Source: Acidiferrobacterales bacterium (lineage in GTDB: Bacteria > Pseudomonadota > Gammaproteobacteria > Acidiferrobacterales > Sulfurifustaceae). Taken from it: a stretch of 33,707 bases of DNA. The notes beneath the pieces were generated by a model, which was not told where the DNA came from, searched no databases, and was given only the letters and a program-made list of their open reading frames with translations. The position numbers and the translations under genes are program-made. Positions 1-29,513 of this stretch are shown piece after piece. The stretch lies in the NCBI GenBank assembly GCA_015492195.1, contig WGFP01000001.1, positions 1 to 33,707 of the forward strand, in the 5' to 3' direction. Position 1 is the first letter of the stretch. Each line of letters begins with the position of its first letter.

Positions 1-1603
1 GGGGTGAGGGATGAGATCCAGGCTTGGGGTTATTACGCGCCCGCGCATCCTGCAAATCCCGGATAAACTCCTCGGCGGAGGCAAAGCGTTCCGCGGGATC
101 GAGGGCGCACGCCTGTTGCAGCACTTCGTCCAGCCACAATGGAAGACTGGCTTTGTAATGGGTAGGTGAAATAAATTCGCGGAATTCCTGATCGGTGGAT
201 TTAATTTTTCCGTAGGGGTATTTTCCCGTAAGCATGTGGTACAAGGTCACGCCGGCCGCGTAGATGTCCGTGCGCACGTTCTCCTCGTTTCCTTCCTCGA
301 ATAATTCCGGGGCCACGTAGCTCAAGGCGCTGACGGGCAGCGCGGCGCTTTTGTTTTGTTCGCGCAGGCTCTCGATGCGGCTCGATCCCAGACCGATAAG
401 GAGCAGTTGTTGCCGGTTTTCCTTGTCCAGCATCAGGTTTTTCGGCCGGACGTCGCGGTGGATGACGCCCCGGCGATGCAGGTGGCTCAGCGCGGAGAGG
501 AGTTGTTCAATAAGCGACAGGGCCTGCCGGACGGGCAGGCCCTGCTTGCGTCGTATGCGTTTGGAGAGGTTCTCGCCTTTATGGTAAGCCATCACCGAAT
601 ACAGGGCGGTGCGCCGGCCGGCCCTCATGGGCAGCATCCGTACCAGATACGAGCTGTTGATGCGTTTGCCGACCCACTCCTCGCGTAAAAAACCGTTGGT
701 GAATTCCGGATCATTGCGAAACCGGGGATTCGGAAATTTAAGCGCGACGGTCTTGCCGGATTCCTCGTCAACGGCTTGATAAAGGCGGTAACGGCGGCTT
801 TTGTGTATTAGTTTCTTGATGACAAAGCCGTCCACCCTGTCATTGATTTCAGGCGGATCAATCAAGGGCAGGGCGGCGATGTCCTCCTCCAGATCGGCAT
901 CGGTTTCCGACGGGAGTTTTTCCACGCGCGCGACGCAGGCGCTGACGTTGTCGCGGCTGCCGGTTTCAAGTGCGCGTCGCGTCAGAATTTCCGCCATTTG
1001 TTGGGCGGAAACGTCGGTCTGCAAGGCGCTCCTGATCCAGGAGCTGTCGAGGGCGTCATGCACGCCGTCACTGGTGAGCAGGAAAATATCGCCTTCGACC
1101 AGTTCGCCGGCAGCGAACTCGGCGTCGAAGCTTCGATCCAGCCCGCAGGCCCGGTAGACCTGTGCCGGGCCCCGGGGGCGCGGATGAACATGGTCATGGG
1201 TCAGCAGCTTGAGTTGGTGGTCGCGAAACATCCACACCCGGGTATTGCCGGCGTGCCCGACGACCCACCGCCGGCCGCGCAGAATCAGCGCCGAGAGGGC
1301 GGCGGCGCGCCCGTGCTCCCCGCCGGAAAACACGGCGTGGTTGGCAACATTGAAGCTTTCCTTGAGCGCCTGTTGCAGCCCCCAACCCTCGACGGTGGTG
1401 TAGTAGCTCTCGCTCAGTTCGTGAATGGCGGTGTGCGCCGCCCTTTCCGCGTCCGGCCGCTCGGCCACGCCGTCCGCGACGGCGAACAACGCGCCGTGGG
1501 TATTCCCCTGATCGGCGCTCGGGATGACGGTCAGGCAGGTATCGTATTTGTTGTCACGTTTCCCCGTGTTCGTCGAGAAACCCGCATCGAGATATAACGG
1601 CAT
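1..1603 (-). CDS. PP2C-type Ser/Thr phosphatase fused to a Ser/Thr kinase-like domain (C-terminus runs off the left edge)
   Basis: Absent from the ORF track because it is open to the window edge. Hand translation of the minus strand from ATG at 1603 gives MPLYLDAGFSTNTGKRDNNKYD... PP2C motifs: FAVADGV, LLTSDGVHD, SRDNVSACV. Kinase motifs follow: TVALKF (VAIK Lys), VIHRDVRPKNL (HRD loop), YVAPELF (APE). The frame stays open down to nt 2. Confidence 0.8.
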   Translation of the reverse strand, partial: MPLYLDAGFSTNTGKRDNKYDTCLTVIPSADQGNTHGALFAVADGVAERPDAERAAHTAIHELSESYYTTVEGWGLQQALKESFNVANHAVFSGGEHGRAAALSALILRGRRWVVGHAGNTRVWMFRDHQLKLLTHDHVHPRPRGPAQVYRACGLDRSFDAEFAAGELVEGDIFLLTSDGVHDALDSSWIRSALQTDVSAQQMAEILTRRALETGSRDNVSACVARVEKLPSETDADLEEDIAALPLIDPPEINDRVDGFVIKKLIHKSRRYRLYQAVDEESGKTVALKFPNPRFRNDPEFTNGFLREEWVGKRINSSYLVRMLPMRAGRRTALYSVMAYHKGENLSKRIRRKQGLPVRQALSLIEQLLSALSHLHRRGVIHRDVRPKNLMLDKENRQQLLLIGLGSSRIESLREQNKSAALPVSALSYVAPELFEEGNEENVRTDIYAAGVTLYHMLTGKYPYGKIKSTDQEFREFISPTHYKASLPLWLDEVLQQACALDPAERFASAEEFIRDLQDARARNNPKPGSHPSP

Positions 1604-1705
1604 GGGCGCAACTCATTCTTGGTTTAATTGGTAAACGGCTCGCGCTGCCGTTTAATTATAGTTAGTTTTTCGTCAATGCGGCTGCATCCGGGTTCGCGCA
1701 CGGCA

Positions 1706-2308
1706 TCAAGATAAATTGCCCGTCAGGCGGTGTTCCGCGCGCGCCAGGTCTGCCGGCGTGTTGATATTAAACGTAATGTCGGCATCGTTATCGGGCTCGA
1801 ACACCGCCGGTTCTCCGTGCCGCGCCAGCCATTCCCGGAGGCTGTGGTTACCCGCTTGGAGAAATGCCTCAACCGGGCTTGCCGTCCCCGGCGGGCACAG
1901 GACAGCGAGCGCGTGCCTTGCGCCGTCGCCGGCGTAGCGGCAACGGTCGCCGGACCAACCCGCCCGGAGTTTTTCCACAAGGTTCCCGGGCAGAAACGGC
2001 AGGTCCACTGCCACGGCTAAAAGCCGGTCCTCGGGCCAGGCGACAAGGCCGGCGTGAATGCCCGCCAGGGGACCAAGGTAGCCGCTCAGGCGGTCCGGGA
2101 TGACCGGCAACCCGAATTCATGGAAACGCTCAGGCGGCGCATTGCTGTTAATAACGAGCCGATCCACCTGCGGCGCGAGACGCGCGATGACATGCGCGAG
2201 CAGCGGTTTGCCGCCCAGGGGAATGAATGCCTTGTCCCGGCCGCCGAAACGGGTGGACCGGCCGCCTGCGAGAATCAGTCCCGTGGTGTGGGGATGTGTC
2301 AGTGGCAA
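1706..2308 (-). CDS. mobA: molybdenum cofactor guanylyltransferase
   Basis: 200 aa. N-terminal GLILAGGRSTRFGGRDKAF nucleotide-binding motif typical of MobA. The start is TTG (only start candidate upstream of the motif) and overlaps the stop of the upstream FeS/membrane gene. Sits downstream of a bis-MGD-type enzyme. Confidence 0.85.
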   Translation of the reverse strand: MPLTHPHTTGLILAGGRSTRFGGRDKAFIPLGGKPLLAHVIARLAPQVDRLVINSNAPPERFHEFGLPVIPDRLSGYLGPLAGIHAGLVAWPEDRLLAVAVDLPFLPGNLVEKLRAGWSGDRCRYAGDGARHALAVLCPPGTASPVEAFLQAGNHSLREWLARHGEPAVFEPDNDADITFNINTPADLARAEHRLTGNLS

Positions 2309-4143
2309 TCCGGCACCACGCCGACCTGGGGCAGGTTCGCCAGCCCGGTTTTGCGGGCATGGGTTTCAAAGTAGCGGTTGTTCCAGAAAAAAGCGCCCGG
2401 CATGGTGGTGGGCGTGACGAGCACATAGAACAATGCCCGTCCGACAATTTCATGAACGACGGCGAGCACGAACAAGGCGCCCCAGATTATCAATCCCCAT
2501 ATGCCTTCCGGCGTCCACAAGGCAAACGCCGCCGCGCCGACAAACAGAACGCCCAAACTTAGCCAACGTGCCATATAGGTTTTGCCGTAGGTGGTCAGCA
2601 TTTGTACCTTTGATACCGCGGCTTCAGCGCCGCGCGTTTCCATATAACGCAAATGGGCCAATAGAGAAACCCCCTGGAGCGTAAGACCGGCAAGCAAAGG
2701 CAAGGCAAGCCACCGCAGCACGTCGGCAACGGGCCCGCCGGATGAAAGTTCGGCCGGTCCGAATGCCAGACCCATGCCCAGGCTGCCGAGAATCAGCACA
2801 CTGGCGAAGAAGGCCCCGCCCGTGTGCCAGTGGTCCCAGAACGGACGGGCCCGGATGCGGTAGATACGGGTCATGCAATACATGGCCGCCACCCCCAAAA
2901 GCGCCGCCAGCGCGCCGACAACGGAGGCCGCCGGCTCACCCGGTATCCAATCAGCGAGGGGAGTCAGGGTTTTCATCAGGGTGTAGGCGAAAAGTAAACC
3001 CAAAAAACCGGACAACGCCAGAGCCTCCCGCGAAAGCCACGAATGTCGCAGGTTATTGAAGCCGCGGTAAAAGCGCATCGGCTTGCCCAGGTGCACCGCC
3101 GACAGGAACAGGGCGAGGCCGAGCAGGCCGAGCAGGCCGAACAGCGCCGCCGCATGGGCCACGGGATGCACTGTTGCCGAAAGCGCCGCGCCCGCGGCCA
3201 TGGGAAGCCGGGGCGAAACAAATAATAATAAGAATGCCCCGACCACAAACTGGGAGAGCAGGGTGAACGCCACCAGCGGGTTTTCGCGCGAACTCAGCTT
3301 GTCGAAGCCCCAGCGCTTTTCTTTGGTTTTGTTTTGTGCCTTAACCTTATAGGTGTCACCGCCCTGGTCACCGCGTTGGTAGTGGACAGGCACGCCGTCG
3401 GTGCGCGTCAAGTCGGGGGGGAGCGAGCGCAGCTGTTGAAAGCGGATATTCGGGCGCGAGATCGCGGGGTCGGGGAAGCCGGGAATGCCAAGCTTGGCCT
3501 GTTCGCGCCCGCCGGGCAGGTCCTCGATCACGCCGAATTCAAGCGCGTTGCCGAGACACGCCGCGACGCAGGCGGGCTTCAATCCCTGTTCCAGGCGGTC
3601 CACGCACATGTTGCATTTTTCCACCTGGCCGTTGACCGGGTCGAGCTGCGGCGCGTTGTAGGGGCAGACCCAGGTGCAGTAGCCGCAGCCGAAGCAGATG
3701 TCCGGGTCCTGCAGTACCGCGCCGTATTCCGCGTACTTGGTGTAGGCGCGCGTGGGGCAGGCCTTGAGGCATACCGGATCCTCGCAGTGGTTGCAGGCCA
3801 TGGAGACATTCAGACGCCGCACGTCCGGATAGGAACCGCCTTCGATATAGCCGACCTTGCGAAACGCCAGGTGCGGCGGCAGGTTGTTTTTCTCCGAGCA
3901 TGCCGATTCGCAGGCATGGCAGGCGATGCAGTTGTCGGCGTTAAAATGAAAGCCGTGTTGCTTGCTGCGGTTGGGATTCGCGGAGTCCGATATCGCGCCG
4001 TTCAGCACCAGAGGTTTCGTCAGCTGATCCGGATAGCAGCGCGCAAGATCAATCTCGGTGCCGTGCTGGCTCGTTTTCACCACCCGACGCGGCGGGTCCA
4101 GACGGGCGTAGGCCGGTGTTTTGTTGAATTTTCCGTCAAACAT
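2299..4143 (-). CDS. fused 4Fe-4S ferredoxin (DmsB-like) and DmsC/NrfD-style integral membrane anchor subunit
   Basis: Four Cys clusters: CIACHACESAC, CNHCEDPVCLKACP, CFGCGYCTWVCP, CNMCVDRLEQGLKPACVAAC. These are followed by about eight hydrophobic helices. Start set at ATG 4143 (MFDGKFNK), residue 116 of the 729-aa track ORF, because the upstream 115 codons cover the hairpin spacer and are low-complexity. No N-terminal signal peptide seen. Confidence 0.8.
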   Translation of the reverse strand: MFDGKFNKTPAYARLDPPRRVVKTSQHGTEIDLARCYPDQLTKPLVLNGAISDSANPNRSKQHGFHFNADNCIACHACESACSEKNNLPPHLAFRKVGYIEGGSYPDVRRLNVSMACNHCEDPVCLKACPTRAYTKYAEYGAVLQDPDICFGCGYCTWVCPYNAPQLDPVNGQVEKCNMCVDRLEQGLKPACVAACLGNALEFGVIEDLPGGREQAKLGIPGFPDPAISRPNIRFQQLRSLPPDLTRTDGVPVHYQRGDQGGDTYKVKAQNKTKEKRWGFDKLSSRENPLVAFTLLSQFVVGAFLLLFVSPRLPMAAGAALSATVHPVAHAAALFGLLGLLGLALFLSAVHLGKPMRFYRGFNNLRHSWLSREALALSGFLGLLFAYTLMKTLTPLADWIPGEPAASVVGALAALLGVAAMYCMTRIYRIRARPFWDHWHTGGAFFASVLILGSLGMGLAFGPAELSSGGPVADVLRWLALPLLAGLTLQGVSLLAHLRYMETRGAEAAVSKVQMLTTYGKTYMARWLSLGVLFVGAAAFALWTPEGIWGLIIWGALFVLAVVHEIVGRALFYVLVTPTTMPGAFFWNNRYFETHARKTGLANLPQVGVVPDCH

Positions 4144-4216
4144 CACTTGAATAGATATGGTCCTGTTGAATAAATGGTTAGTGGATTGTGTTTCCTTGTG
4201 TTTGACATCCCCATAT

Positions 4217-4436
4217 GGCGCGCCCGAGCAGCGTAAAGCGTTGGGTGTGCGCCCCGAAGGGGGTGCTTGCAGGAAGCAAGCACCCGGCCCACGAGACAGG
4301 GAGGTCTCGTAGGGCCGGCGTCGGGTCCCAACGCTGCGCAGCGCAGGATAAGCGCGCCATTCGGGGCGCCCTTTCTTTCGCCGATTTCTTTGGGCGAGCA
4401 AAGAAATCGGCCCGTCGTGCGGGGGCGGAACCCCGC
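4217..4436. repeat. cluster of GC-rich hairpins / nested palindromes in the intercistronic spacer (REP/MITE-like element or structured RNA)
   Basis: Perfect stems read directly: 4261-4270/4276-4285 (10 bp); 4291-4297/4304-4310 (7 bp) extended by 4286-4290/4312-4316; 4380-4391/4400-4411 (12 bp); 4419-4424/4431-4436 (6 bp); 4354-4358/4365-4369 (5 bp). Palindrome GCTGCGCAGC at 4333-4342. Long-range pairs 4237-4245/4327-4335 (9 bp) and 4218-4224/4352-4358 enclose the inner hairpins. Confidence 0.55.
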
Positions 4437-4535
4437 TCATACAACTGTTTGCCAAGGCAAGACTTGGGGCGAAGCGTGGTAGACACAAGCTGCTCGTTTC
4501 TCAAGGGAACCCGATCCTTTCCGTTGTGATTTCGT

Positions 4536-6716
4536 TTAATAACTCCGTACAACTTTGTTGCGTACGGCAGCAGTCTCCTGGTCCGTGACCTTTTCAATCC
4601 GCACCGCCGACTGCTTGAACGCGGGTTGGCGCGAATAGGGGTCGAGTAGACCCAGGACCAGGCGGTTGACGCATTCATGAAAATGCATGGGAATAAACAC
4701 GGCGTCCGGCGCCACGCGCTCGGTCAGTTGCACCATGATCACGGTGTCCGAACGGCGCGACACCACGCGCACGTATTCCATATGCTGGATACCCAGTTTA
4801 CTTGCTGCGGCCGGGTTCATTTCCATGTACGGCGTCGGGCTGAACTTGTTCAGGTTGCCGATCTTGCCGGTCTTGGTGCGCGTGTGCCAGTGTTCCACCA
4901 CGCGTCCGGTGTTGAGCCAGAATGGATATTGCTCATCCGGGCGCTCGTTGTTGTCCACGAATGGCAGGGGAATAAGTCTGGCCTTGCCGTCGGCATGCTG
5001 AAACACGCCGTCGGTATAAAGCCGTGGTGCGCCTTCGGGGTTCGTTTCATTGCACGGCCACTGGATGCCGCGTCTTTGCTCGATTTTATCGTGCGTCATG
5101 CCGGAGTAATCGCATAGCCGGCCTTTTGAAAGTTCGCGCATTTCCTCAAACACCGCCGCCGCCGTTTCCGGGAAACGCATTTTTTGCCCCGTCTCAAAAC
5201 GCTTGGCCAGTTCGTTGAAGATCCAGAGGTCCGGTTTGGCTCGTCCCGGCGGGTCCATGACCTTGCGCACCAGGTTCACGCGCCGCTCGGTGTTGGTGAA
5301 CACGCCTTCCTTCTCGCCCCACAGGGCGGCCGGCAAAAATGCGTGGGCGTACTGCGTGGTCTCGACGTCGGCATAGGCGTCCTGCACCGCCAGGAATTCG
5401 AGTTTCTCCAGGGTTTTGCGGATGCGCGGGGTGTTCGGCATGGAACTCATGGGGTTGGTGGCAATCAGCCACAGGCCCTTGATCTTGCCGGCCTCGATCG
5501 CCGGAAAGATGTCGGTCTGGAACAGGCCGCGCTTGGTGGGAAAGAAGTCCTTGTCCACGCCCCAGTACTCGGCCATGAATTCGCGGTCCGTTTCATTTTC
5601 CAGGTAACGGTAGGCCGGCAGTCCCGAGCACGAGGAAAACTCGCGCGTGCCCATGGCGTTGCACTGGCCGGTGATGGACAGCGAGGTGCCGCCGGGTTTG
5701 CCGATGTTGCCGGTAATAAGGTTAAGGTTGTTGATGGCGACCACGCCGTCGCTGCCGTGCGTGGACTGGTTGATGCCCATGGTCCAGATGGTCATGGCGG
5801 CGGGTGACTTGGCGTAGAGCCGCGCCACGTTACGGATCGTGTCCGCGTCAATGCCGCAGATGCGCGAGGCCGTCACCGGATCGTATTGCTCGACCAGCTT
5901 ACTGAATTCCGCGCTGCCGGTCGTGTGCGCGCCGATATAAGCACGGTCTTCCAGGCCTTCATCCAGAATGACGTGCGCCAGGCTGTTTAACAGCACGAGG
6001 TCGGTGCCGGGAGTAATCGGCAGGTGCATGTCCGCCATTTGCGCAAACACCGTCACGCGTGGGTCGACGACGATGACGGGAAACTTGCGCGCGTCGCGCG
6101 CCTCCTTCAGGCGCCAGTAAATGATCGGATGCTGTTCCGGCAGGTTGGAGCCGATGGCGAGCAGGCAGTCGGTATGATTGAAATCATCGTAACAACCCGG
6201 CGGCCCGTCGCTGCCGAAGGAGCGCTTGTAGCCTGAGACCGCCGAGGCCATGCACAGGGTGGTGTTGCCGTCGTAGTTGTTGGTGCCGATGACGCCGCGG
6301 GCGAGCTTGCCCAGGGTATAGAATTCTTCCGTCAGGATCTGGCCGGTGGAGACGATGGCGAAGGCGTCGCGCCCGTATGTCGTCTGAATGCGTTTGATCT
6401 CGCTTGCCGTTTTATCCAGGGCGGCGTCCCAGGTGGTTTCCTGAAACGGCTCGAAGAAGCGCTCGCGCACAAGCGGCGCCCGCCCGCGGTTGGCGGCGTT
6501 GAAAACCTCGAATTCAAAAATGCCCTTGAGGCACAGCTTGCCGCGGTTCACCGGGGCGTCGGTCAGCCCGCGCGCGGTGACGGCCCGGCCGTTTTGATCC
6601 AGCCCGACCTCGATCGTGCAGCCGGTGGAACAGTAGCCGCAGGTGGTGTAGGCCCATTTGGCCACGGGTTTGGCGGGGATCTTGATCGGGTTTTTGGTGC
6701 GCCGTCCGAACAGCAT
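4536..6716 (-). CDS. molybdopterin (bis-MGD) oxidoreductase catalytic subunit, Nas/Nap-like, no Tat signal evident
   Basis: N-terminal FeS motif CGYCSTGCTIEV...GKLCLKG. Segment NTTLCMASAVSGYKRSFG resembles the Mo-ligand Cys region of Nap/Nas-type nitrate reductases. Start placed at ATG 6716 (MLFGRRTKNPIK), because the TTG at 6788 used by the track lies upstream of a sigma-54 promoter match at 6750-6765. Confidence 0.85.
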   Translation of the reverse strand: MLFGRRTKNPIKIPAKPVAKWAYTTCGYCSTGCTIEVGLDQNGRAVTARGLTDAPVNRGKLCLKGIFEFEVFNAANRGRAPLVRERFFEPFQETTWDAALDKTASEIKRIQTTYGRDAFAIVSTGQILTEEFYTLGKLARGVIGTNNYDGNTTLCMASAVSGYKRSFGSDGPPGCYDDFNHTDCLLAIGSNLPEQHPIIYWRLKEARDARKFPVIVVDPRVTVFAQMADMHLPITPGTDLVLLNSLAHVILDEGLEDRAYIGAHTTGSAEFSKLVEQYDPVTASRICGIDADTIRNVARLYAKSPAAMTIWTMGINQSTHGSDGVVAINNLNLITGNIGKPGGTSLSITGQCNAMGTREFSSCSGLPAYRYLENETDREFMAEYWGVDKDFFPTKRGLFQTDIFPAIEAGKIKGLWLIATNPMSSMPNTPRIRKTLEKLEFLAVQDAYADVETTQYAHAFLPAALWGEKEGVFTNTERRVNLVRKVMDPPGRAKPDLWIFNELAKRFETGQKMRFPETAAAVFEEMRELSKGRLCDYSGMTHDKIEQRRGIQWPCNETNPEGAPRLYTDGVFQHADGKARLIPLPFVDNNERPDEQYPFWLNTGRVVEHWHTRTKTGKIGNLNKFSPTPYMEMNPAAASKLGIQHMEYVRVVSRRSDTVIMVQLTERVAPDAVFIPMHFHECVNRLVLGLLDPYSRQPAFKQSAVRIEKVTDQETAAVRNKVVRSY

Positions 6717-6749
6717 GGTTTTCCATTCCGGTTGACTTGCGACGGGAAT

Positions 6750-6765
6750 AGCAATGCTTGTGCCA
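6750..6765 (-). promoter_or_regulatory. sigma-54 (RpoN) -24/-12 promoter element
   Basis: The minus strand reads TGGCAC-AAGCA-TTGCT. This matches the TGGCAC-N5-TTGC(A/T) consensus with correct GG-to-GC spacing. It lies about 35-50 nt upstream of ATG 6716. Confidence 0.65.
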
Positions 6766-6848
6766 AAGCGAAAGCTATTTTGACTCAAGAGCTTAGGTAC
6801 AGCAGGTCCGGGGAGCCAGCACCAAAAGACGGGCTGGTTTTTGTGTGC

Positions 6849-6865
6849 TGCACCGCCATGGTGCG
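6849..6865. promoter_or_regulatory. NtrC-type enhancer (UAS) palindrome
   Basis: TGCACCGCCATGGTGCG matches the TGCACC-N5-GGTGCA dyad of NtrC sites at all but the last base. It is centred about 90 nt upstream of the -24 element. An extra GCACCA half-site lies near 6819-6824. Confidence 0.5.
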
Positions 6866-6989
6866 GTTACGGCACAGAGGGTTGTAGGGTATTCTTCGGG
6901 CTCATTGGGTCGGTTCGGCGCAAAAGAACAGCCAAGCCTTGCGATAAAAACATAACGGATAACAGAAAAAGCCTTCCAAGGAGCAGAGA

Positions 6990-7373
6990 ATGAATATAGA
7001 AAAAGTGGTGTTCAGCTTTTTTATCGTCCTGGCGCTGACGCTTAATTTCGGATTTTTCCTCGGCGATTTTGACAACCCCCACCACCATAATGTGTACGAG
7101 CTCTTTGCCGCCCTTGTGGTGAGCCTGATCGCCACCGTGCTCAAGTTCGGTGATCGCACGCACGTGGGCGCGGTGTTGCTGGCCACGAGCCTGGTGGCCG
7201 ATCTGCAATTGATCGCCGCGGCATTGGTCTGGGGATTGGCGGAGCATGTGTTCCAGGTCGGGCTCACCCCCCCCATCATGGTCAGTATCGTTTCCCTTTC
7301 CGGCGGCGCCCTGTTGGCCAACATTGTTTCCGTCATCCTGCTTTTAATAGAAACCACCACGCTTCGCCGCTGA
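6990..7373 (+). CDS. small integral membrane protein, unknown function
   Basis: 127 aa with about four hydrophobic segments and a His-rich loop DFDNPHHHNVYE. Strong AAGGAG Shine-Dalgarno 6 nt upstream of the ATG. The next gene follows after 16 nt. Confidence 0.7.
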   Translation: MNIEKVVFSFFIVLALTLNFGFFLGDFDNPHHHNVYELFAALVVSLIATVLKFGDRTHVGAVLLATSLVADLQLIAAALVWGLAEHVFQVGLTPPIMVSIVSLSGGALLANIVSVILLLIETTTLRR

Positions 7374-7389
7374 CTCCCGACGGGCCGCG

Positions 7390-9087
7390 ATGAAAAATAC
7401 GGCATTGTTTTTAATCCTGCGGCGGATGCGGCTTCCGCTGCTGGTGTTGATTACCGCCTACGCCGTGTCGATTCTCGGGCTCGTGCTCATTCCGGGCGTG
7501 GACGCGGAGGGCAGGCCGTATCAGCTGGATTTTTTTCACGCCTTCTATATCGTCACCTACACGGTCACGACCATCGGTTTCGGTGAGCTGCCCTATGCCT
7601 TCACCGATGGCCAGCGAATGTGGATCACGGCTTCCATTTATCTGGGCGTGGTGGCCTGGCTCTACGCCATCGGTGCCCTGATCACGCTTCTCCAGGATTC
7701 CGCCTTCCGTCAGGTCATTCGGGAAAACCGTTTTGCATACAGCGTGCGCCGTATCCGCGAACCCTTCTACATTGTCTGCGGTTACGGAGATACGGGCAGG
7801 CTGGTGGTGCGCGCCATGACACAGCACGGCCTGTCTTCCGTGGTTGTTGACAACAACCAGGATCGCATCAATGAGTTGTCCCTTGAGAATCTTGGCGTGT
7901 ATGTTCCCGGGCTGCGCGCCGATGCGAGCCAGCCAGGCGCCCTGATCATGTCGGGCCTGAAGCATCCGCGATGCGCGGGGGTGGTGGCGATCACCAGCGT
8001 GGACTCGATCAATCTCAAGATCGCCATCACCTGCAAGTTGCTTAATCCGGAGTTGACGGTGATCTGCCGTGCCCAAACCCACGATGCCAAGGCCAACATG
8101 GAGTCGTTCGGCACGGATGCCGTGATTAATCCTTTCGATACCTTTGCGGGCCGTCTGGCAATGGCGCTGCACTCACCCGATATGTATCTGGTCTATGAAT
8201 GGTTGACGGAAATCCCCGGTTTGCCTTTGCCGCTTGCCATCCATCCGCCGCACGGGACCTGGGTGTTGTGCGGTTACGGTCGTTTCGGCAAGGCGGTGCA
8301 CCGCTATTTGCACTATGAAGGGTTGCCGACGGTTATTATCGAGGCGGACCCGGAGGGCACCGGCGCGCCGGAGGATGCGGTGGTCGGCCGCGGCACCGAG
8401 GCCGTCACCCTGCGCGAGGCGCACATTGAAAAGGCCGTGGGAATCGTGGCGGGCACCGACGACGACGCCAACAACCTGTCCATTATCATGACGGCGCGTG
8501 ACCTCAACAAAAATCTATTTCTGGTAGCGCGCCAGAATAGAAGCGAGAACGAACCCATTTTCAAGGCCGCCGGGCTTGATCTCGTCATGCAGCGCTCGCG
8601 CGTGATCGCGAACCGGATCCTCTCCCTGATCCGGACACCGTTGTTGACGGATTTTCTGCGCCTGGCGCGCCATAAAAACAACGAGTGGGCGAAAAGGCTC
8701 ATCGAACAGCTATGGCCGGTGATCGGCAATGTCTCGCCCGACCTGTGGGCGGTCGAACTTTCCCAAGACGCCGCGCCCGCGGTTTACGAGGCGCTCGAGG
8801 CGGGGCGGGACATCCGCCTGGCGCATCTTCTTATGGACCCGCGTAACCACAATGAGCGCCTCATGGGTATGCCGTTGCTCTTGATGCGTGCGGAGGAGGA
8901 GCAGCTGTTGCCGGATGAGGACACCCCGTTACAGCCCGGTGATCGATTGCTTTTTTGTGGACGGCAAGGCATTTCGGGACGGATGCAGTGGGTGCTCAAG
9001 AACCATAATGTCTTGGCCTATCTCGAATCGGGCAAGGCCCAGCCGGAAGGATATATTTTCCGCTGGTTGGCAAAGCGCGCCGAGTGA
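7390..9087 (+). CDS. potassium channel protein with two RCK/TrkA-N domains
   Basis: 2TM pore module with selectivity-filter-like TVTTIGFGE. Two Rossmann GxGxxG motifs (IVCGYGDTGR, VLCGYGRFGK) are typical of RCK domains. Confidence 0.8.
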   Translation: MKNTALFLILRRMRLPLLVLITAYAVSILGLVLIPGVDAEGRPYQLDFFHAFYIVTYTVTTIGFGELPYAFTDGQRMWITASIYLGVVAWLYAIGALITLLQDSAFRQVIRENRFAYSVRRIREPFYIVCGYGDTGRLVVRAMTQHGLSSVVVDNNQDRINELSLENLGVYVPGLRADASQPGALIMSGLKHPRCAGVVAITSVDSINLKIAITCKLLNPELTVICRAQTHDAKANMESFGTDAVINPFDTFAGRLAMALHSPDMYLVYEWLTEIPGLPLPLAIHPPHGTWVLCGYGRFGKAVHRYLHYEGLPTVIIEADPEGTGAPEDAVVGRGTEAVTLREAHIEKAVGIVAGTDDDANNLSIIMTARDLNKNLFLVARQNRSENEPIFKAAGLDLVMQRSRVIANRILSLIRTPLLTDFLRLARHKNNEWAKRLIEQLWPVIGNVSPDLWAVELSQDAAPAVYEALEAGRDIRLAHLLMDPRNHNERLMGMPLLLMRAEEEQLLPDEDTPLQPGDRLLFCGRQGISGRMQWVLKNHNVLAYLESGKAQPEGYIFRWLAKRAE

Positions 9088-9957: not shown

Positions 9958-11487
9958 TTAATGACCGATCGTTTGTGCCTGTTCCAGCGGTTTGTTCTTG
10001 GGAACGGCCTCCGGATAGAGTTCGGTCAGGGGGACGGAGCGGCCGTTTTCAATCACGATGCGTGCGTGATAGCGGCGCAGCTTGCGCGGCTCCGGCACCC
10101 CGCAGGAGTGCGCGATCATCCCCACGGCGTGGACGATGTTGCGCGCGTAGTTTGCGACGCGAACGGCCTTGCGTTTGGGATCCAGGCCGCGCTGTAGCTT
10201 GGGATTGTGAGTGGTGACACCCGTGGGGCAGGTGTCCTTGTTGCATCGCAGGGCCTGGATGCAGCCGAGCGAGAACATGAAGCCGCGGGCGGAGTTGACG
10301 AAATCCGCGCCCACGCACAGGGCCCAGGCGACCTCCGTGGGCGTGATCAATTTGCCGGAGGCGATGACCCTGACCCGTTCATGCAGGCCGTATTCCGTCA
10401 GTTTGTTGATCACCAGCGGCAGGCTCTCGCGCAGCGGCAGGCCCACGTTGTCCATCAGGCTCATGGGCGCGGCGCCGCTGCCGCCGTCGGCGCTGTCTAC
10501 GGTAATAAAGTCGGGGGCGCTCTCGACGCCGCGTTTGGTTATTTCGCTAAATAAATTATCAAGCCAGCCGTAGGCGCCGATGACCGTTTTAAAGCCGGTG
10601 GGTTTGCCGGTGACGGTGCGGATCCGTTCGATCATGTCCAGGAGATCGCCGTTGGTGTTGATCTCGGGATGACGGTTGGGACTAATGGAATCCTGGTAGG
10701 CCGGGATGCCCCGTATCGCGGCGATTTCCGGCGTCACTTTTGCGCCGGGAAGAATGCCGCCCTTGCCGGGTTTGGCGCCCTGGCTTAACTTCAATTCGAA
10801 CATGCGCACCCGTTCATGGGCCGCCACCTCACGTAATTTCTCATCGTCGAGCACGCCGTAGTGATTACGCACGCCGTATTTGGCCGTGCCGATCTGGAAC
10901 ACAAGGTTGGCGCCGCCCTCCAAGTGATACGGCGACAACCCGCCTTCGCCGGTGTTCAGCCAGCAGCCCGCCATGCGCGCGCCGTTTGAAAGCGCGAGCA
11001 CGGCGGGTTTGGAGATCGCCCCGTAACTCATCGCCGAGATGTTAAACAGGGAATCCGTCGTGTAAGGGTTCTTGCAGTGGGGGCCGATGGTAATCGGGTG
11101 GGGCGGGGCGGCGTCGACTTCGAGCGTGGGAAAGGGGCAGTTGACAAAAAGAACGGTCCCGGTCGGGCGGAGATCGCGCGTTGACCCGAACGCGACCGTG
11201 TTATCGATATTCTTCGCAGCGCGATAGACCCAACTGCGCTCGGCGCGGTTAAAGGGCAGCTCCTCGCGGTCCATGGCAAAAAAGTATTGCCGGAAGAACT
11301 CGCCCAGCCGCTCGAACAAGCCTCGAAAGCGTCCGATGATCGGAAAGTTTCGGCGGATGGCGTGTTCGGTCTGGTTGACGTCGAGGATATATAAAATGAC
11401 GAGGCCCAGCGCCACGGTTCCGACGACGAAGACGAAGGTGTAGACCAGAATCTGCAGAATCGTTAACAGCGCGCCGTCCATATCCAT
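9958..11487 (-). CDS. FMN-binding glutamate synthase family protein with N-terminal TM helix
   Basis: 509 aa. N-terminal hydrophobic helix, then GltB-domain-2-like motifs (SAMSYGAIS, GEGG, KLSQGAKPGKGG, VDSADGGSGAAP). GGGAGG Shine-Dalgarno; ATG 11481 is an alternative start. Confidence 0.85.
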   Translation of the reverse strand: MDMDGALLTILQILVYTFVFVVGTVALGLVILYILDVNQTEHAIRRNFPIIGRFRGLFERLGEFFRQYFFAMDREELPFNRAERSWVYRAAKNIDNTVAFGSTRDLRPTGTVLFVNCPFPTLEVDAAPPHPITIGPHCKNPYTTDSLFNISAMSYGAISKPAVLALSNGARMAGCWLNTGEGGLSPYHLEGGANLVFQIGTAKYGVRNHYGVLDDEKLREVAAHERVRMFELKLSQGAKPGKGGILPGAKVTPEIAAIRGIPAYQDSISPNRHPEINTNGDLLDMIERIRTVTGKPTGFKTVIGAYGWLDNLFSEITKRGVESAPDFITVDSADGGSGAAPMSLMDNVGLPLRESLPLVINKLTEYGLHERVRVIASGKLITPTEVAWALCVGADFVNSARGFMFSLGCIQALRCNKDTCPTGVTTHNPKLQRGLDPKRKAVRVANYARNIVHAVGMIAHSCGVPEPRKLRRYHARIVIENGRSVPLTELYPEAVPKNKPLEQAQTIGH

Positions 11488-24863: not shown

Positions 24864-26366
24864 CTAGATGACCGGCACGTCGATGTCGGTCTTCGGCACG
24901 TAGTCTTCCATCAGCGGAAAAGCGCTCAAATCCTTGGCAATGGCCGCGCGCAGAAACGAGTCGACCCACCAGAAGATGTTGTATTTGCTGATGGAACGCC
25001 GCATTCGGCGCATGCGCCCCTGTCGTTCCGCTTTGTCCATGACAAAGGCCTGATAGATGGCGTCCGCCACGCCCTCGATGTCGTAGGGATTCACCAGAAG
25101 CGCGCCGTTTTGCAGCTGCGCCGCCGCACCCGCGAATTCGCTTAGAATCAGCACGTTTTCCTCCTTGATGCTGGAGGCGCAATATTCCTTGGCCACCAGG
25201 TTCATCCCGTCTTTTAGAGGGGTGACCAGCGCGATTTCGCAGGCCCGGTAATAAGCCAGCAACTCGACACGCGTCAGGTTGCGGAACATATAGTGGATGG
25301 GCACCCATCTGCCGAATTTGGTGAATTCGCCGTTGATGTGGCCCACCATTTGTTCGATGGTGGTTCTGAGATCGTGATATTTGGGGATATCTTCCCGGCT
25401 CGGTACCACGATCTGAATAAGCGTGATCCGCCGGTGCAGTTCGGGGTAGCGTACCAGGGCGTTTCTGAACGCCTCCAGACGATTGGGGATGCCCTTGGTG
25501 TAATCCAGGCGGTCCACGCCCAGAATGAGCTGGCGGTCCGGCAAAACCCCGTGGAGTTGCCTGACCTTTTCAATGACCTCTGCGCCGGTCGCCTCTTCGA
25601 TAAACGTGTTGTAATCGATGCTGATGGAAAAGGCGCCGATTCTCACCTCGCGATCCCCGACATTGGCCGTGAGCACCTGGCCCTTGCCCTGCACCGTGAC
25701 GTGCTTGACCATGGCCCGGATACATTGCACGAAGTTGCGCCGGTCGCGCAGCGTCTGGAACCCGATCAGGTCGTAGTCCAGTAAGGCGTGCAGCAATTCA
25801 AACCGCCAGGGGAGTTTGAGAAAGATGTCCAGGGAGGGGAAGGGGATGTGCAGGAAAAAACCGATTCTTGAGCGGACGCCCAAATGGCGCAGTTCCGTCG
25901 CCACGTTCATCAGGTGGTAGTCGTGCACCCATATGAAGTCGTTTTCCTTGCTTTGCCGCGCAATGACCTGGGCATATTTGTGATTGACCTCCTTGTAAAC
26001 TTGCCAGTACGAAGGGTCGAAATTACAGTGCGACTGAAGATCATGGAACAGGGGCCAGATCACCTCATTTGAAAAACCCTGATAGAATTTGTGTACTTCG
26101 TCGTCGGTAAGCGCAACGGGTACCAGCGCGTAGCCGGCGTCGCGGTTGGAGTCCGCCAGCACCTGACTGATGTCGTCAATTTTATCCGTGGTTCCGGGCC
26201 AGCCGATCCAGATCCCGCCGCGGTCGCGCAATACCGGGAGCAGGGCGGTAACCAGGCCGCCTGATCCGGGGGTGATTTTCCACTGCTTGTCGCTTCCTTT
26301 CCTGACCACGAAAGGCAGACGGTTTGATACGACGATCAGGCGTTCTTTGGGTGTTTGCGAAATCAT
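24864..26366 (-). CDS. otsA: alpha,alpha-trehalose-phosphate synthase (GT20)
   Basis: [28 protein letters not shown] and [11 protein letters not shown] motifs typical of OtsA. Confidence 0.9.
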
Positions 26367-26410
26367 TTTTTGACCCCTTGATATCCCTTTCCGGCGCCTT
26401 TCGATGCCTC

Positions 26411-27463
26411 CTAGGATTCCTTGTGGATATATATGCTTTGAGTCGGATAGGCGAATTCAATTCCTTCTTCCTGGAAGCGACGGAAAATGGCGAGATTGAT
26501 CGCCTGCTGGGTGTCCATGTAGGCGTTGTAGTCCGGGACACGCACGTAGTAGACGATCTCGAAAATCAGGGCAAAGTCGCCGTATTCCTTGAAATGCGCC
26601 CGGTCAAATCTGGCCCTGTCTTGGGATTCGATTATCTCACGGATGTACGACTGGATTCGAGTCAGCTTTTCCAGCGGCGTCTGATAGGTGACGCCCAGGC
26701 TGAAAACCACGCGGCGCTCGTACATCCGTTTGTAATTACGGATGCGGCTGTTCAGGATATCCGTATTGGAAAAAACAATCTGCTCTCCGCTGAGGCTGCG
26801 GATTCGCGTGGTCTTGATCCCGATATATTCCACCGTCCCCATTTTGTCATCCACGATGATGAAGTCGCCGATGAGAAAAGGTTTATCCAATACGATGGAC
26901 AGGGACGCGAACAGATCGCCCAGAATATTTTGCGCGGCCAGCGCCACGGCGATACCGCCTATGCCAAGCCCCGCTATCAGCGCGGTGATATCAAAGCCCA
27001 GATTATCCAGTGCGAGCAGGACGATAATGGACCAAAGTGCCACCCGGCTGATAAAGCCGAGGACGTATAGCGTGGTTACTTTGGCGGCATCCTGCTCCGT
27101 TTTCTTTCCCAACTTAAAGGAGAGCCAGAAGGCGATCAGGCGATTACCCCAGATCGCCGTTTGCAAGAGCAAGGCGATGATCGTCACATTCTTGATCAGG
27201 TCTTCCAGCCCTTTCGGGAGGGTGAGTACCTGCGAGCCAAAGTACACTGCGAGCGGGATCAGTAAAATAATCTTTGTGCCGGTCAGTACCTCTGCGATAA
27301 GATCATCCAGCTTTGTCTCCGTTTTTTTGGCATACCCCGTCAAGCGATTAATGATTATCTTATTGAAGACCAGGAACGCTAAGGTGACGATAATCGTGAT
27401 CAGGAGGGCGATGCCCCACGCTTGTAACGTGTTGCCTAAAAACACGCTTTGTATGGTTATCAT
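26411..27463 (-). CDS. mechanosensitive ion channel, MscS family
   Basis: 350 aa. Several N-terminal TM helices, the pore-helix region GLGIGGIAVALAAQNILGDLFASL, and beta-domain GDFIIVDDKMGTVEYIGIKTTRIRS. Its ATG overlaps the otsB stop (ATGA). Confidence 0.85.
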   Translation of the reverse strand: MITIQSVFLGNTLQAWGIALLITIIVTLAFLVFNKIIINRLTGYAKKTETKLDDLIAEVLTGTKIILLIPLAVYFGSQVLTLPKGLEDLIKNVTIIALLLQTAIWGNRLIAFWLSFKLGKKTEQDAAKVTTLYVLGFISRVALWSIIVLLALDNLGFDITALIAGLGIGGIAVALAAQNILGDLFASLSIVLDKPFLIGDFIIVDDKMGTVEYIGIKTTRIRSLSGEQIVFSNTDILNSRIRNYKRMYERRVVFSLGVTYQTPLEKLTRIQSYIREIIESQDRARFDRAHFKEYGDFALIFEIVYYVRVPDYNAYMDTQQAINLAIFRRFQEEGIEFAYPTQSIYIHKES

Positions 27464-28257
27464 GTTATGTTCCCCGGTGTTTCGGCCCAGCGTGTGAGAA
27501 ATGCCAACAATTCATCCGGCGGTCGCAGCCACAGATCGGCCGCGGTCGGACGCAACTCGCTGCGTACAAGGACGCCGAGCCCTTTCCCCTTGATGGCGCG
27601 AAATGCGTCTTCATCCGTTAAATCATCCCCCAAATAAGCGATGACGGCATCCTTCCCCATCTCGGAACAGATTTTCTCCACCGCGTATCCTTTGTTTCTT
27701 CCGGCGATGCGGAGTTCGATACCGCCGTCGAACTCGTGGATGTTCAGCCCCGACTCTTGCCCCAGGAGCGCCCATTTTTCAAGCACCTTTGCACGGATCT
27801 TTTCAACCGCTCCCGGGTCCAGACCGCGCCAGTGGACGGCGAGGCACGCCGGTTTCTGTTCGACGCGCCCGCCCAGCGCGATGATCTCATCGCCCCAGGT
27901 GTCCGCCTCGGCCAGGTTTTGTAGGGCACGCTTGTCCATCTCGACCATTTCGCGTTCCCCACCCGGCAGTACACGTTCCCAGCCGTGGGAGCCCCAGATT
28001 TCCGGCAGTTTTTTGAGCTGAAGGAGCGGTATCAGGTCTTTGGTACTACGACCGCTGATTAATATCAACCGGGTTCCGCCCGTTTCTATAATATTGTCGA
28101 GAATCTCGCGAACCCCGGGATAGGGAACGGCCTTTTCCCGCTCAATGCGAAACGGGGCGAGCGTCCCATCGTAGTCCAGAAGCAGGGCGCGATTTACTTT
28201 TGTGCCCAGCTTCTGAAAGAAAGATGCAAGATCAAGCTCCTTTCTAAGTATTTTCAT
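27460..28257 (-). CDS. otsB: trehalose-6-phosphate phosphatase (HAD family)
   Basis: LLLDYDGTLAPF, LISGRS, GSHG, EQKPACLAVHWR and YLGDDLTDEDAF motifs of trehalose phosphatases. Confidence 0.85.
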   Translation of the reverse strand: MKILRKELDLASFFQKLGTKVNRALLLDYDGTLAPFRIEREKAVPYPGVREILDNIIETGGTRLILISGRSTKDLIPLLQLKKLPEIWGSHGWERVLPGGEREMVEMDKRALQNLAEADTWGDEIIALGGRVEQKPACLAVHWRGLDPGAVEKIRAKVLEKWALLGQESGLNIHEFDGGIELRIAGRNKGYAVEKICSEMGKDAVIAYLGDDLTDEDAFRAIKGKGLGVLVRSELRPTAADLWLRPPDELLAFLTRWAETPGNIT

Positions 28258-28271
28258 TCAGCCGGAAATGG

Positions 28272-29513
28272 TTATCCAAGTTCAATCCTTTCTTCACTGC
28301 CGTGCGTCAGTCCGACCATCAACGTCAGGTATTCCCGAAGCTGGCGGGTGATGAGAAAGTTCTCGCGCACGAATTCCCTGGCCTTGTGACCCATTTCTTC
28401 ACGCTTCTCCCGGTTCGTGTGCAGATAGCGGATACGCAGTGCCGCGCCTTCAGGCGAATTGACGAGGAAACCGGTGTGATGATTCACCAGTTGCAGCCGG
28501 ATCCCCCCCGTGTCCCCACCGATGACCGGTTTGCTTTTCCACATGGCCTCCGACACGGTGAGCCCAAAACCTTCTTTGATGGATTTTTGCAAAACAAAAC
28601 TCGCCGTCCGCTGCAAGGCATTAATGGTACGGTGTGCGTCCGGGGGCAGAGGCAGGATGTGAATGTCCGAATCATCTTTGGCCGCAAGGCGCACCTCGTT
28701 CAGAACGTCCTCTCCCTCGGGATCGTCGCCGGCGCCGCCGCCCGCCAAAACCAATTGCAGGGTAGGGATGAAGTTCTTGGCCAGTTGATAGGCTTGGATG
28801 ACGCCCAGCGGATCCTTGAAGCGGTCAAAACGCGACACCTGCAGCATCATCGGCCTTTCCCGATCCAGGCTGAAACGGTCGTATACGGAATTGATTTCGT
28901 CCTGATCGAGCTCCATGTTCTTTTCGCTCAGCGGATCAATGCTGGGTGGAATGAGATAAATAAGATGCGGCAGAGGCTGCGCGAAGGCGGAGAGGGAAAA
29001 GACGCTGGCATCGTAGTCCGCCACAAAGTGCCTCAAGTATTTCCACGCCTGTCGGTAGGGGTGGCTGACGTCGATATGGCAGCGCCATATCCATTTTCCT
29101 TTCCTGCCGGGACAGAGATTCAAAAGGGGCGCCGGTTGCGGGTCATGAATGAACACGATATCCGCATCCTCAAGCACCTCACGAAGTTCCTCGGCGTTTC
29201 TGGCGTTAATGTCTTCATAGACCTTCAGCAGGGTTTCCGGAATATTAACGGGATCTCCCTGTAGCGCGTTGTGAAAGTGTTTGGTGCATTGATAAAAATC
29301 CGCGCTTCCGGCAATAACCTCCCAGCGTGCATCCATGCCCAATTCCTTCATCAAAGGAACGAGAATCGTGAGTATTTCCGCCACCCCCCCACCGGCACGA
29401 GTCGAGTTGACATGCACCACCTTTTTGCCTTTCAGAGAAGCCGCAAGTTGCACGAGATGATTGATGACATCTTTGCCGGCTACGTCGGTATAGGCTTTAA
29501 GAAATCCCTTCAT
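28272..29513 (-). CDS. treT: trehalose glycosyltransferring synthase-like GT4 glycosyltransferase
   Basis: Extended similarity to archaeal TreT as I recall it: VHVNSTRAGGGVAEIL, FHNALQG, WRCHIDVS, PPSIDPLSEKN, VSRFDRFKDP, DDPEG, QKSIKEGFGLTVSEAMWK. Its ATG overlaps the upstream stop (ATGA). Confidence 0.72.
   Translation of the reverse strand: MKGFLKAYTDVAGKDVINHLVQLAASLKGKKVVHVNSTRAGGGVAEILTILVPLMKELGMDARWEVIAGSADFYQCTKHFHNALQGDPVNIPETLLKVYEDINARNAEELREVLEDADIVFIHDPQPAPLLNLCPGRKGKWIWRCHIDVSHPYRQAWKYLRHFVADYDASVFSLSAFAQPLPHLIYLIPPSIDPLSEKNMELDQDEINSVYDRFSLDRERPMMLQVSRFDRFKDPLGVIQAYQLAKNFIPTLQLVLAGGGAGDDPEGEDVLNEVRLAAKDDSDIHILPLPPDAHRTINALQRTASFVLQKSIKEGFGLTVSEAMWKSKPVIGGDTGGIRLQLVNHHTGFLVNSPEGAALRIRYLHTNREKREEMGHKAREFVRENFLITRQLREYLTLMVGLTHGSEERIELG

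Follow-up and report, generated by a model that had tools for sequence, protein, structure and literature searches.

To our knowledge, textbook and review schemes describe bacterial assimilatory nitrate reductases (Nas) as soluble, with NAD(P)H, ferredoxin or flavodoxin as the source of electrons. In the respiratory nitrate reductase NarGHI, the type II enzyme NarG has an Asp ligand, and quinol is oxidized at the periplasmic face by NarI, a dihaem cytochrome b, which makes Nar electrogenic. We know of no characterized membrane anchor of the DmsC family that serves anything other than an enzyme exported by twin-arginine translocation (Tat). SoeABC is a precedent for a three-module molybdenum enzyme without Tat signals, which exchanges electrons with the quinone pool at the cytoplasmic membrane face. 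Here we analysed a stretch of DNA of 33,707 nucleotides (33.7 kb; hereafter the window) from an Acidiferrobacterales bacterium, contig WGFP01000001.1. It contains an operon in which a Nas/Nap-type catalytic subunit gene (cat) is combined with a gene (fus) that joins an iron-sulfur (FeS) ferredoxin and a DmsC-type anchor in one polypeptide. We propose that this operon probably encodes a membrane-bound, cytoplasm-facing quinol:nitrate oxidoreductase for the first step of nitrate assimilation.

The operon lies on the minus strand. According to the open reading frame (ORF) listing and our reading of the sequence, an NtrC-like dyad, a further half-site and a sigma-54 element are followed by cat (6716..4536), a spacer, fus (4143..2299), mobA (2308..1706) and a gene for a PP2C phosphatase/kinase. 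Cat encodes a subunit of 726 aa with a molybdenum bis(pyranopterin guanine dinucleotide) (Mo-bisPGD) centre, as assigned by Pfam and sequence motifs, and fus a protein of 614 aa. MobA is a molybdenum cofactor guanylyltransferase (TIGR02665, 166 bits compared with a cut-off of 152). Direct reading of the sequence places the TTG start of mobA in a 10-nt overlap with the TGA of fus, by which mobA is predicted to be translationally coupled to fus.

The catalytic subunit

The cat product carries the Pfam domains Molybdop_Fe4S4, Molybdopterin and Molydop_binding. Two motifs stand out, CGYCSTGC...LCLKG for a [4Fe-4S] cluster (C-x2-C-x3-C...C) and TLCMASAVSGY. The segment CMASAVSGY, with the Cys Mo ligand and its adjacent Met, is shared by the cat family with canonical Nas, and so are TMGINQS and TGQCNAMGTRE, which reads TGQPNAMGGRE in Nas. 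In a multiple alignment, CM[AS]SAV and TGQxNAMGxRE, the latter with the catalytic Arg, were invariant in 12 cat-family members and common to six Nas references. The active sites of the other groups differed, i.e., Nap had PSACG, whereas formate dehydrogenases (Fdh) had C-H/Q and NNVQGASD. The best solved structure for cat was the monomeric NapA of D. desulfuricans (2NAP, 460 bits), and equivalents of NapA Cys140/Met141, Met308 and Arg354 align in cat.

Searches by tblastn against annotated plasmid genes gave 35–40% identity with assimilatory nitrate reductases, 32–35% with Fdh and 30–31% with NapA. The plasmid collection contained no close cat-family member, every match being below 60% identity. 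In a neighbour-joining tree with ten references, the cat family came out as one compact clade at the end of a long branch, with canonical Nas (36–41% identity) as its sister group. Within the family, identity amounted to 66–87% across Nitrospirota, Gemmatimonadota, Alpha-, Beta- and Gammaproteobacteria, and the length was nearly always 726 aa.

Cat exceeded none of the NCBIfam equivalog cut-offs; the Fdh-alpha model scored highest, at 606 bits just under its cut-off of 666. Neither result is discriminating, because a genuine long NasA from Methylophaga ranked the same models in the same way, with Fdh-alpha first and with lower scores. Given this shared ranking, the absence of the Fdh active-site residues and the presence of the Nas signatures, we rejected an identity as formate dehydrogenase. 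Cat reached 529 bits on the NasC model NF047855 (cut-off 1100) and 471 bits on the haloarchaeal NasA model NF041323 (cut-off 1000), where canonical proteobacterial NasA scored 486 and 407, respectively. These two models do not cover proteobacterial Nas. Scores on the NapA models were 416–432 bits against cut-offs of 904–930, and the dmsA_ynfE model gave 135 bits against a cut-off of 778.

Cat is like NasA, NasC and NarB in its catalytic fold, its domain order, its N-terminal [4Fe-4S] motif, its Cys Mo ligand in CM(A/S)SAV and its TGQxNAMGxRE segment. It also shares with Nas the lack of a Tat signal, a predicted cytoplasmic location and, in relatives, a neighbourhood of nirBD, narK or nrtABC and nasT-like genes. 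However, it belongs to a separate, tightly conserved clade, and at 726 aa it is shorter than the long proteobacterial NasA (870–920 aa) and lacks their C-terminal BFD-type [2Fe-2S] domain. The partner differs as well: Nas enzymes rely on a flavoprotein that uses NAD(P)H, on a ferredoxin or on a flavodoxin, whereas the conserved partner of cat is a membrane-integral fusion of a four-cluster ferredoxin and DmsC. In comparison with Nap, which provides the closest solved structure and is quinol-fed via FeS or membrane partners, cat has a Nas-type active site. Moreover, Nap is Tat-exported, and its partners NapB, NapC, NapG and NapH are unrelated to the DmsC fusion; no nap genes were found in the window or in the relatives' loci. 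Members of the DmsA clade have a Ser or Asp Mo ligand, in contrast to the Cys-ligated cat, which falls into the Nas/Nap/Fdh radiation.

The FeS-DmsC fusion and its predicted membrane orientation

Fus begins with an N-terminal extension, followed by a DmsB-like ferredoxin with four [4Fe-4S] clusters (residues ~60–235), a linker, a DmsC domain (~290–575) and a conserved C-terminal tail that is predicted to be cytoplasmic. It was assigned by Pfam Fer4_11 and DmsC and by NCBIfam DMSO_dmsB. The ferredoxin domain contains all 16 Cys in four groups that are invariant in the family, and shares 39% identity with DmsB of E. coli. On the DmsB model TIGR02951 fus scored 164 bits, which is under the equivalog cut-off of 214, and its DmsC domain (PF04976) scored 77.7 bits compared with a cut-off of 22.3. 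Eight clear hydrophobic helices follow after residue 290. The narH model reached 54 bits against a cut-off of 524, and Pfam and NCBIfam searches of the operon proteins returned no match to NarG or NarI. We set the start of fus to ATG 4143 because the N-terminus MFDGKFNK is conserved in homologues. A 729-aa ORF from TTG 4488 was also considered as the partner protein and was rejected, as its upstream stretch is a non-conserved structured spacer.

The N-terminus of cat, MLFGRRTKNPIKIPAKPVAKW, provides 25 residues before the first cluster Cys, and its highest 12-residue Kyte-Doolittle mean is 0.23. Two Tat-bearing NapA proteins used as controls have leaders of 47–48 residues with SRRDxLK and a hydrophobic region of about 1.5. 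Across 60-odd homologues, the N-terminal consensus of cat is MLFGR-x-x-KNPI, and the second Arg of the Arg-Arg pair varies freely, with H, Q, K, L, S, T or G found in its place. Tat export of cat, suggested by this pair, was rejected after comparison with the homologues and the Tat-positive controls. We found no Tat or Sec signal in cat or fus, either in the window or in homologues, and no signal peptide or transmembrane segment within residues 1–290 of fus.

These results can be set against a sequence-only reading of the window, which had described the 726-aa subunit with both motifs and an N-terminus without a Tat signal in spite of its Arg pair. It had also described a partner that joins ferredoxin and about eight DmsC-type helices in one polypeptide without a signal, and a mobA gene with overlapping start and stop. 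The three Pfam domains, the hydropathy values and the TIGR02665 assignment bear this description out; for the partner, the architecture stands and the start codon had to be corrected from TTG 4488 to ATG 4143.

The distribution of positive charges then bears on the orientation in the membrane. In an alignment of 73 fus sequences, Lys and Arg in the FeS-side loops add up to 22 per protein, compared with 0.7 in the loops of the far side. On the FeS side, 6.3 of these residues precede the first transmembrane helix, 4.7 lie in loop 2-3, 3.6 in loop 4-5, 4.2 in loop 6-7 and 3.4 in the C-terminal tail, while the four far-side loops hold 0.15, 0.16, 0.32 and 0.04. In a helix-by-helix alignment with DmsC of E. 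coli, the count for the window's fus was 20 versus 0, whereas DmsC with 3 versus 5 has no such bias. By the positive-inside rule, this argues very strongly for a cytoplasmic FeS side, so that the complex would face the cytoplasm. The module would keep its internal geometry, with the ferredoxin beside the helix 2-3 loop, but would be flipped in the membrane.

Two residues of fus, H351 (in HLGKP) and E373 (in LSRE), align with DmsC His65 and Glu87, which are reportedly implicated in menaquinol binding in E. coli. Both are invariant in 58 aligned homologues, and the loop between helices 2 and 3 is mostly invariant in the same set. The predicted quinol site would be located at the cytoplasmic face, beside the cluster chain. 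In the AlphaFold2 model of fus, the membrane domain had a predicted local distance difference test score (pLDDT) above 90. Its best fold matches were the quinol-binding ActC of alternative complex III and PsrC, with marginal Foldseek support (E ~5e-4).

The arrangement is like DmsABC and YnfFGH, complexes of the complex iron-sulfur molybdoenzyme (CISM) type, in that a Mo-bisPGD subunit is combined with a four-cluster ferredoxin and an eight-helix DmsC anchor with equivalents of His65 and Glu87. It is unlike DmsABC since ferredoxin and anchor form one polypeptide, a Tat signal is absent and the module is predicted to be inverted towards the cytoplasm. With NarGHI it would share, as a functional analogy, the overall reaction (quinol + nitrate -> quinone + nitrite), a cytoplasmic active site and a four-cluster module. 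However, it has no homology to NarGHI in the defining parts, its anchor is haem-free and its predicted quinol site is cytoplasmic. SoeABC, by description, has a much larger SoeA, separate subunits, an NrfD-family anchor and electron flow towards quinone. PMC10100899 places SoeA in a different catalytic clade, the bSreA/SoeA group. From the 726-aa size, the Nas motifs and the DmsC-family anchor we consider it unlikely that cat and fus belong to SoeABC.

Each part comes from a known family; the combination joins a nitrate reductase of the Nas type to an electron-input module that is fused, of the CISM type and inverted in its topology. According to Wells et al. 2020 (PMC7331816), no member of the Fdh/Nas/Aio/Nap clade has a canonical four-cluster subunit or a membrane anchor. 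The cat-fus pair contradicts this generalization, and the pair is not rare. Full-text literature searches, which did not reach subscription-only literature, returned no description of the pairing. Databases name cat 'nitrate reductase', 'assimilatory nitrate reductase catalytic subunit' or 'YjgC', and fus 'DmsC/YnfH family molybdoenzyme membrane anchor subunit' or 'DMSO reductase iron-sulfur subunit'. From these generic names we conclude that the genes are catalogued and the system has gone unrecognized. We also found no characterized clade with the same partner architecture, a case that the sequence-only reading had named as one that would speak against it.

Relatives, promoter and proposed function

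To place the operon among its relatives, one genome per species was scanned, which yielded 259 fus-encoding loci; locus counts given here are from the best 80 of these. Neighbouring ORFs were clustered into families and the identities of representatives were checked, e.g., the NirB/NirD representative passed the NirB and NirD models. Cat was found immediately upstream of fus in 67 of the 69 loci that had room for it, so the gene order noted in the window recurs across genomes. NirB/NirD occurred in 37 loci, a NarK-family transporter in 19, the PP2C/kinase in 16 and GGDEF-EAL genes in 15. For loci with at least 5 kb on each side, NirB/NirD was present in 25 of 46, and at least one of NirBD, NarK and the PP2C/kinase in 27 of 46. 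Homologues number in the thousands across Nitrospirota, Gemmatimonadota, Alpha-, Beta- and Gammaproteobacteria. Carrier lineages comprise sulfur, iron, manganese and nitrite oxidizers, and the genes are common too in the marine heterotrophs Oleispira, Spongiibacter, Halioglobus and Methylophaga.

Individual loci illustrate the association with nitrate genes. In L001, the nearest relative, nirBD and narK accompany cat, fus and the kinase; of this set the window keeps only cat, fus and the kinase, with mobA between the last two. MobA adjoins cat-fus in few relatives only (L006 and L010). In the cultured Sulfurirhabdus autotrophica (L090) the order is nirB-cat-fus-nirD-narK-PP2C/kinase, with a canonical NasA of 919 aa a few genes upstream. 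Two metagenomic contigs carry ANTAR(NasT-like)-globin-nrtABC-cat-fus with amtB adjoining (L093), and kinase, narK, nirB, nirD, cat and fus beside dsrC and soxYZ (L094). On a divergent branch (L091, 2-5235), narK-PII(glnB-like)-cat-fus was found with cat 55–62% and the anchor 41% identical and a fus of 581 aa; further fused FeS-DmsC representatives of 525–585 aa exist. Together with the active-site motifs, the synteny in relatives points clearly to nitrate, which is almost certainly the substrate of cat. The sequence-only reading had held that the substrate could not be deduced, which is correct for the window taken alone and no longer applies once these two lines of evidence are added.

Upstream of cat, a sigma-54 -24/-12 promoter, TGGCACAAGCATTGCT, is present at 6765..6750 (minus strand), beginning 49 nt upstream of the cat ATG. 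Its pattern TGGCAC-N5-TTGCT is the sole exact sigma-54 match within the window, with GG at -24, GC at -12 and correct spacing. An NtrC-type dyad, GCACCATGGCGGTGCA, lies at 6849..6864, its centre ~117 nt upstream of the predicted transcription start. The dyad pattern GCACC-N5-GGTGC likewise occurs once in the window, with a chance expectation of 0.07. We compared this region with those of the two closest relatives in which cat heads its operon, Sulfuricaulis (L002) and a member of the Burkholderiales (L017). The element TTGGCACAnGCnTTGCTA is kept at equal distance from the start codon in both. Conserved at the same positions are also the GCACCA half-site, its G(C/T)GCA partner and TTGGTGC. The last, a second NtrC-like half-site at 6819..6825 (minus strand), is invariant in the three-way upstream alignment, and NtrC may bind there. 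The sigma-54 element and the dyad hence appear to be more than chance matches. A scan of 1500-7100 found no sigma-70 promoter.

From these features we propose the following mechanism. Quinol oxidation would occur where helices 2 and 3 of fus end on the cytoplasmic side, at the DmsC-type site with His351 and Glu373. Electrons would pass through the four [4Fe-4S] clusters of fus to the [4Fe-4S] cluster of cat, and from there to the Cys-ligated Mo-bisPGD centre, where nitrate would be reduced to nitrite. A NirBD- or NirA-type nitrite reductase encoded elsewhere would convert nitrite to ammonium. MobA would provide the guanine dinucleotide form of the cofactor, and expression from the sigma-54 promoter with its NtrC-type upstream sites would take place under nitrogen limitation. 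Of the eight electrons that nitrate assimilation requires, two would thus be supplied at the level of quinol and not as NAD(P)H or ferredoxin. Both half-reactions, the oxidation of quinol and the reduction of nitrate, would take place at the cytoplasmic face, where protons would be released as well as taken up; unlike NarGHI, the complex is therefore not expected to build up a proton-motive force. The nitrate/nitrite couple, given as 433 mV in PMC10100899 and lying at about +420 to +430 mV, is far above the ubiquinone and menaquinone couples, and the reaction would therefore be strongly downhill.

Sequence analysis shows directly how the domains are arranged, that export signals are absent, that positive charges are biased to one side, and which motifs, gene linkages and promoter elements are conserved. 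From these data we infer that quinol is the donor, which way the electrons run, that the reaction is electroneutral and nitrate-reducing, what physiological purpose it has and that it depends on RpoN and NtrC. A cytoplasm-facing, quinone-pool-coupled and nitrogen-regulated enzyme had already been put forward by the sequence-only reading, together with the sigma-54 match and the dyad. The charge bias and the absent export signals argue for the first of these attributes, the DmsC-family match, the invariant His65/Glu87 equivalents and the fold resemblance to ActC and PsrC for the second, and the promoter, which occurs once in the window and is kept in its nearest relatives, for the third.

A likely benefit of the complex is economy of low-potential reductant, and the lithotrophic carrier lineages fit, but the pair is also common in marine heterotrophs. 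For lithoautotrophs that oxidize sulfur, iron, manganese or nitrite, quinol electrons are cheap because NAD(P)H there needs reverse electron flow. If the enzyme is quinol-driven, nitrate assimilation would become cheaper, which would matter most to such chemolithoautotrophs. The fused FeS-DmsC protein might moreover act more generally as a supplier of quinol electrons to enzymes of the cytoplasm, e.g., to the NirA-family neighbour of fus in a Nitrospirota locus (L005).

Several points weigh against the assignment as a quinol-dependent assimilatory enzyme. No nitrite reductase or nitrate transporter genes are present in the 33.7-kb window, as the sequence-only reading had stated; the assimilatory role in this organism rests on the relatives, and the PP2C/kinase gene and the sigma-54 promoter are the only traits of a nitrate cluster within the window itself. 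The assignment of the quinol site is transferred from mutagenesis work reported for His65 and Glu87 of E. coli DmsC. The ferredoxin domain in the AlphaFold2 model is unreliable, with a pLDDT of 30–50, so the model could not show how the domains pack. The tree of catalytic subunits was distance-based and built from references other than NarB and Bacillus NasC.

Furthermore, a canonical NasA was found in the same cluster as cat-fus in four loci (L051 13710-16352, L059 13704-16349, L067 12495-15245 and L090 2102-4861). Carriers of both are Methylophaga, a Rhodocyclaceae metagenome-assembled genome and Sulfurirhabdus, where NasA has 880–919 aa and a C-terminal BFD-type 2Fe-2S domain; in Methylophaga it is accompanied by a 408-aa reductase that resembles the N-terminus of NirB. 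Cat-fus and NasA may hence have distinct roles, and two alternative electron supplies used under different conditions are a reasonable guess. Finally, cat and fus are unlinked in a few Nitrospirota (L005 3-3891, L007 7712-9508, L018 2588-4462 and L095 7001-9181). In L005, fus follows a gene for a NirA-family nitrite/sulfite reductase, and L095 has cat without fus. The partnership is therefore not absolute, and fus might serve other acceptors.

Of the alternatives to an assimilatory quinol:nitrate oxidoreductase, the one that we rate highest is a nitrate reductase that faces the cytoplasm but serves dissimilation or redox balance. Such an enzyme would put surplus quinol electrons onto nitrate and, via NirBD, onto nitrite, as a non-energy-conserving counterpart of Nap and not as a dedicated assimilatory enzyme. 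In some bacteria, NirBD is known to work in nitrite ammonification of the dissimilatory or fermentative kind. Several genomes also have a canonical NasA of the NADH type clustered with cat-fus, next to which a second assimilatory enzyme would look redundant, and some loci are flanked by GGDEF-EAL genes instead of nas genes. However, the sigma-54/NtrC-type promoter of the window and its close relatives points to nitrogen control, and P-II, AmtB, the NasT-like ANTAR protein and NrtABC as neighbours are markers of assimilation. Moreover, many carriers are obligately aerobic marine heterotrophs or lithoautotrophs. We hence regard a dissimilatory role as unlikely.

The fusion could also be a mere tether or electron wire without quinol chemistry, where a soluble donor, e.g., NirB/NirD or a ferredoxin, docks on the four-cluster domain. 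In Paracoccus, the NirB/NirD homologues NasB and NasG are known to feed NasC, and cat-fus lies between nirB and nirD in Sulfurirhabdus and directly after nirBD in many loci. Against this stands the invariance of the DmsC quinol-site equivalents and of most of the helix 2-3 loop across phyla, which would be hard to explain for a passive anchor. Eight conserved helices would also be costly for simple anchoring, and nirBD is not near cat-fus in the window and in many other loci. A passive role of fus therefore seems improbable to us.

A different substrate, with formate oxidation or the reduction of chlorate, selenate or another oxyanion and an incidental link to nitrate genes, is very unlikely. 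The Fdh-alpha model did give the highest NCBIfam score, and NapA enzymes are promiscuous towards chlorate and perchlorate according to PMC12769810. However, the Methylophaga NasA ranks Fdh-alpha first as well, and cat lacks the Fdh signature residues (Sec/Cys-His, NNVQGASD) and has the Nas signatures. Synteny with nir, nar, nrt, P-II and amtB also recurs across phyla. That the complex is periplasmic like DmsABC, exported by an unrecognized signal or by hitch-hiking on another Tat substrate, is suggested by the Tat-exported clients of known DmsC-family anchors and the Arg-Arg pair of the window's cat, but we consider it extremely unlikely in view of the variable second Arg, the missing hydrophobic region in a segment of just 25 residues, the covalent connection of the ferredoxin to helix 1 through a strongly positive linker, the Lys and Arg bias and the lack of any conserved Tat-signal-bearing partner among the neighbours in relatives' loci.

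With a quinol:nitrate oxidoreductase of the assimilatory type as our preferred explanation, the complex could be taken as a third, hitherto unrecognized class of bacterial assimilatory nitrate reductase, beside those that depend on ferredoxin/flavodoxin and on NAD(P)H. This class would be quinol-dependent, haem-free and located at the cytoplasmic membrane face, with a Nas-type catalytic subunit and an inverted FeS-DmsC fusion; our judgement on this wider claim is evenly balanced. If true, the class would be spread over lineages of sulfur, manganese and nitrite oxidizers and over abundant marine Gammaproteobacteria, and it would present a clear natural case of a respiratory-type anchor that was inverted and recruited to an anabolic enzyme. 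Metagenome surveys already score cat as nasA (JGI name: assimilatory nitrate reductase) and thereby miss its different electron supply. For genomes whose Nas electron donor has been called unknown, cat-fus could offer an answer.

Intergenic spacer and neighbouring genes

Between cat and fus lies a GC-rich, hairpin-rich spacer of 392 nt (4144..4535, minus strand) with five inverted repeats. Its predicted RNA fold has -168 kcal/mol with z = -6.8. No similar sequence was found in relatives, where the gaps between cat and fus are mostly 8 to ~400 nt, and no second copy occurs within the window. A scan of 1-9000 against Rfam found no riboswitch or leader and no match for the spacer. It is probably an inserted repeat-type element, resembling repetitive extragenic palindromes (REP) or miniature inverted-repeat transposable elements (MITE); alternatively, it looks like a structured processing or stability element inside the operon.

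The gene for the PP2C phosphatase/Ser-Thr kinase fusion (2..1603, minus strand; Pfam PP2C_2 and Pkinase) follows mobA after a gap of ~100 nt and is cut by the window edge. Its family was found near cat-fus, nirBD or narK in 16 of the 80 loci, including L001 and L002, and in addition in L090 and L094. The protein may be a conserved, uncharacterized regulator of nitrate assimilation. A similar kinase is presumably present in Pseudomonas nas clusters, but a literature search for PA1782 found nothing.

Other genes recur close to cat-fus in relatives. A 133-aa ORF without Pfam match lies directly downstream of fus in L058 (11964-12365) and in 12 other marine gammaproteobacterial loci, with Oleispira, Methylophaga, Bermanella and relatives as hosts; it might encode a maturation factor. 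A PhzF-family gene is found near cat-fus in ~13 loci, e.g., L048 (7222-8136). In the Nitrospirota locus L018, fus follows genes for membrane proteins whose N-termini, as judged by eye, resemble antiporter-type subunits of Nuo.

In the window, a gene for a DUF6394 membrane protein (6990-7373, plus strand) diverges from the promoter region of the nitrate reductase. It apparently forms one operon with a gene for a K+ channel with two TrkA-N domains (7390-9087, plus strand). At a distance of 3 kb from the cat-fus operon, a 509-aa protein with a glutamate-synthase FMN domain (PF01645) is encoded at 9958-11487 (minus strand); its N-terminus is hydrophobic, as read by eye from the translation. Outside the nitrate operon the window is ordinary chromosomal DNA, with further genes for MlaA, TrmD, a XerC/D-like recombinase, UvrD/Rep, citrate synthase and enzymes of trehalose synthesis. 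Its citrate synthase shares 80–81% identity with proteins from Acidiferrobacterales, Sulfuricaulis and Muproteobacteria metagenome-assembled genomes, which makes an uncultured gammaproteobacterium of the sulfur-oxidizer type the probable host. The trehalose genes belong to a compatible-solute cluster at 24864-29513 (minus strand), with an OtsA-like GT20 protein, an MscS-family channel, a trehalose phosphatase and a TreT-type trehalose synthase, which is unrelated to the nitrate operon.

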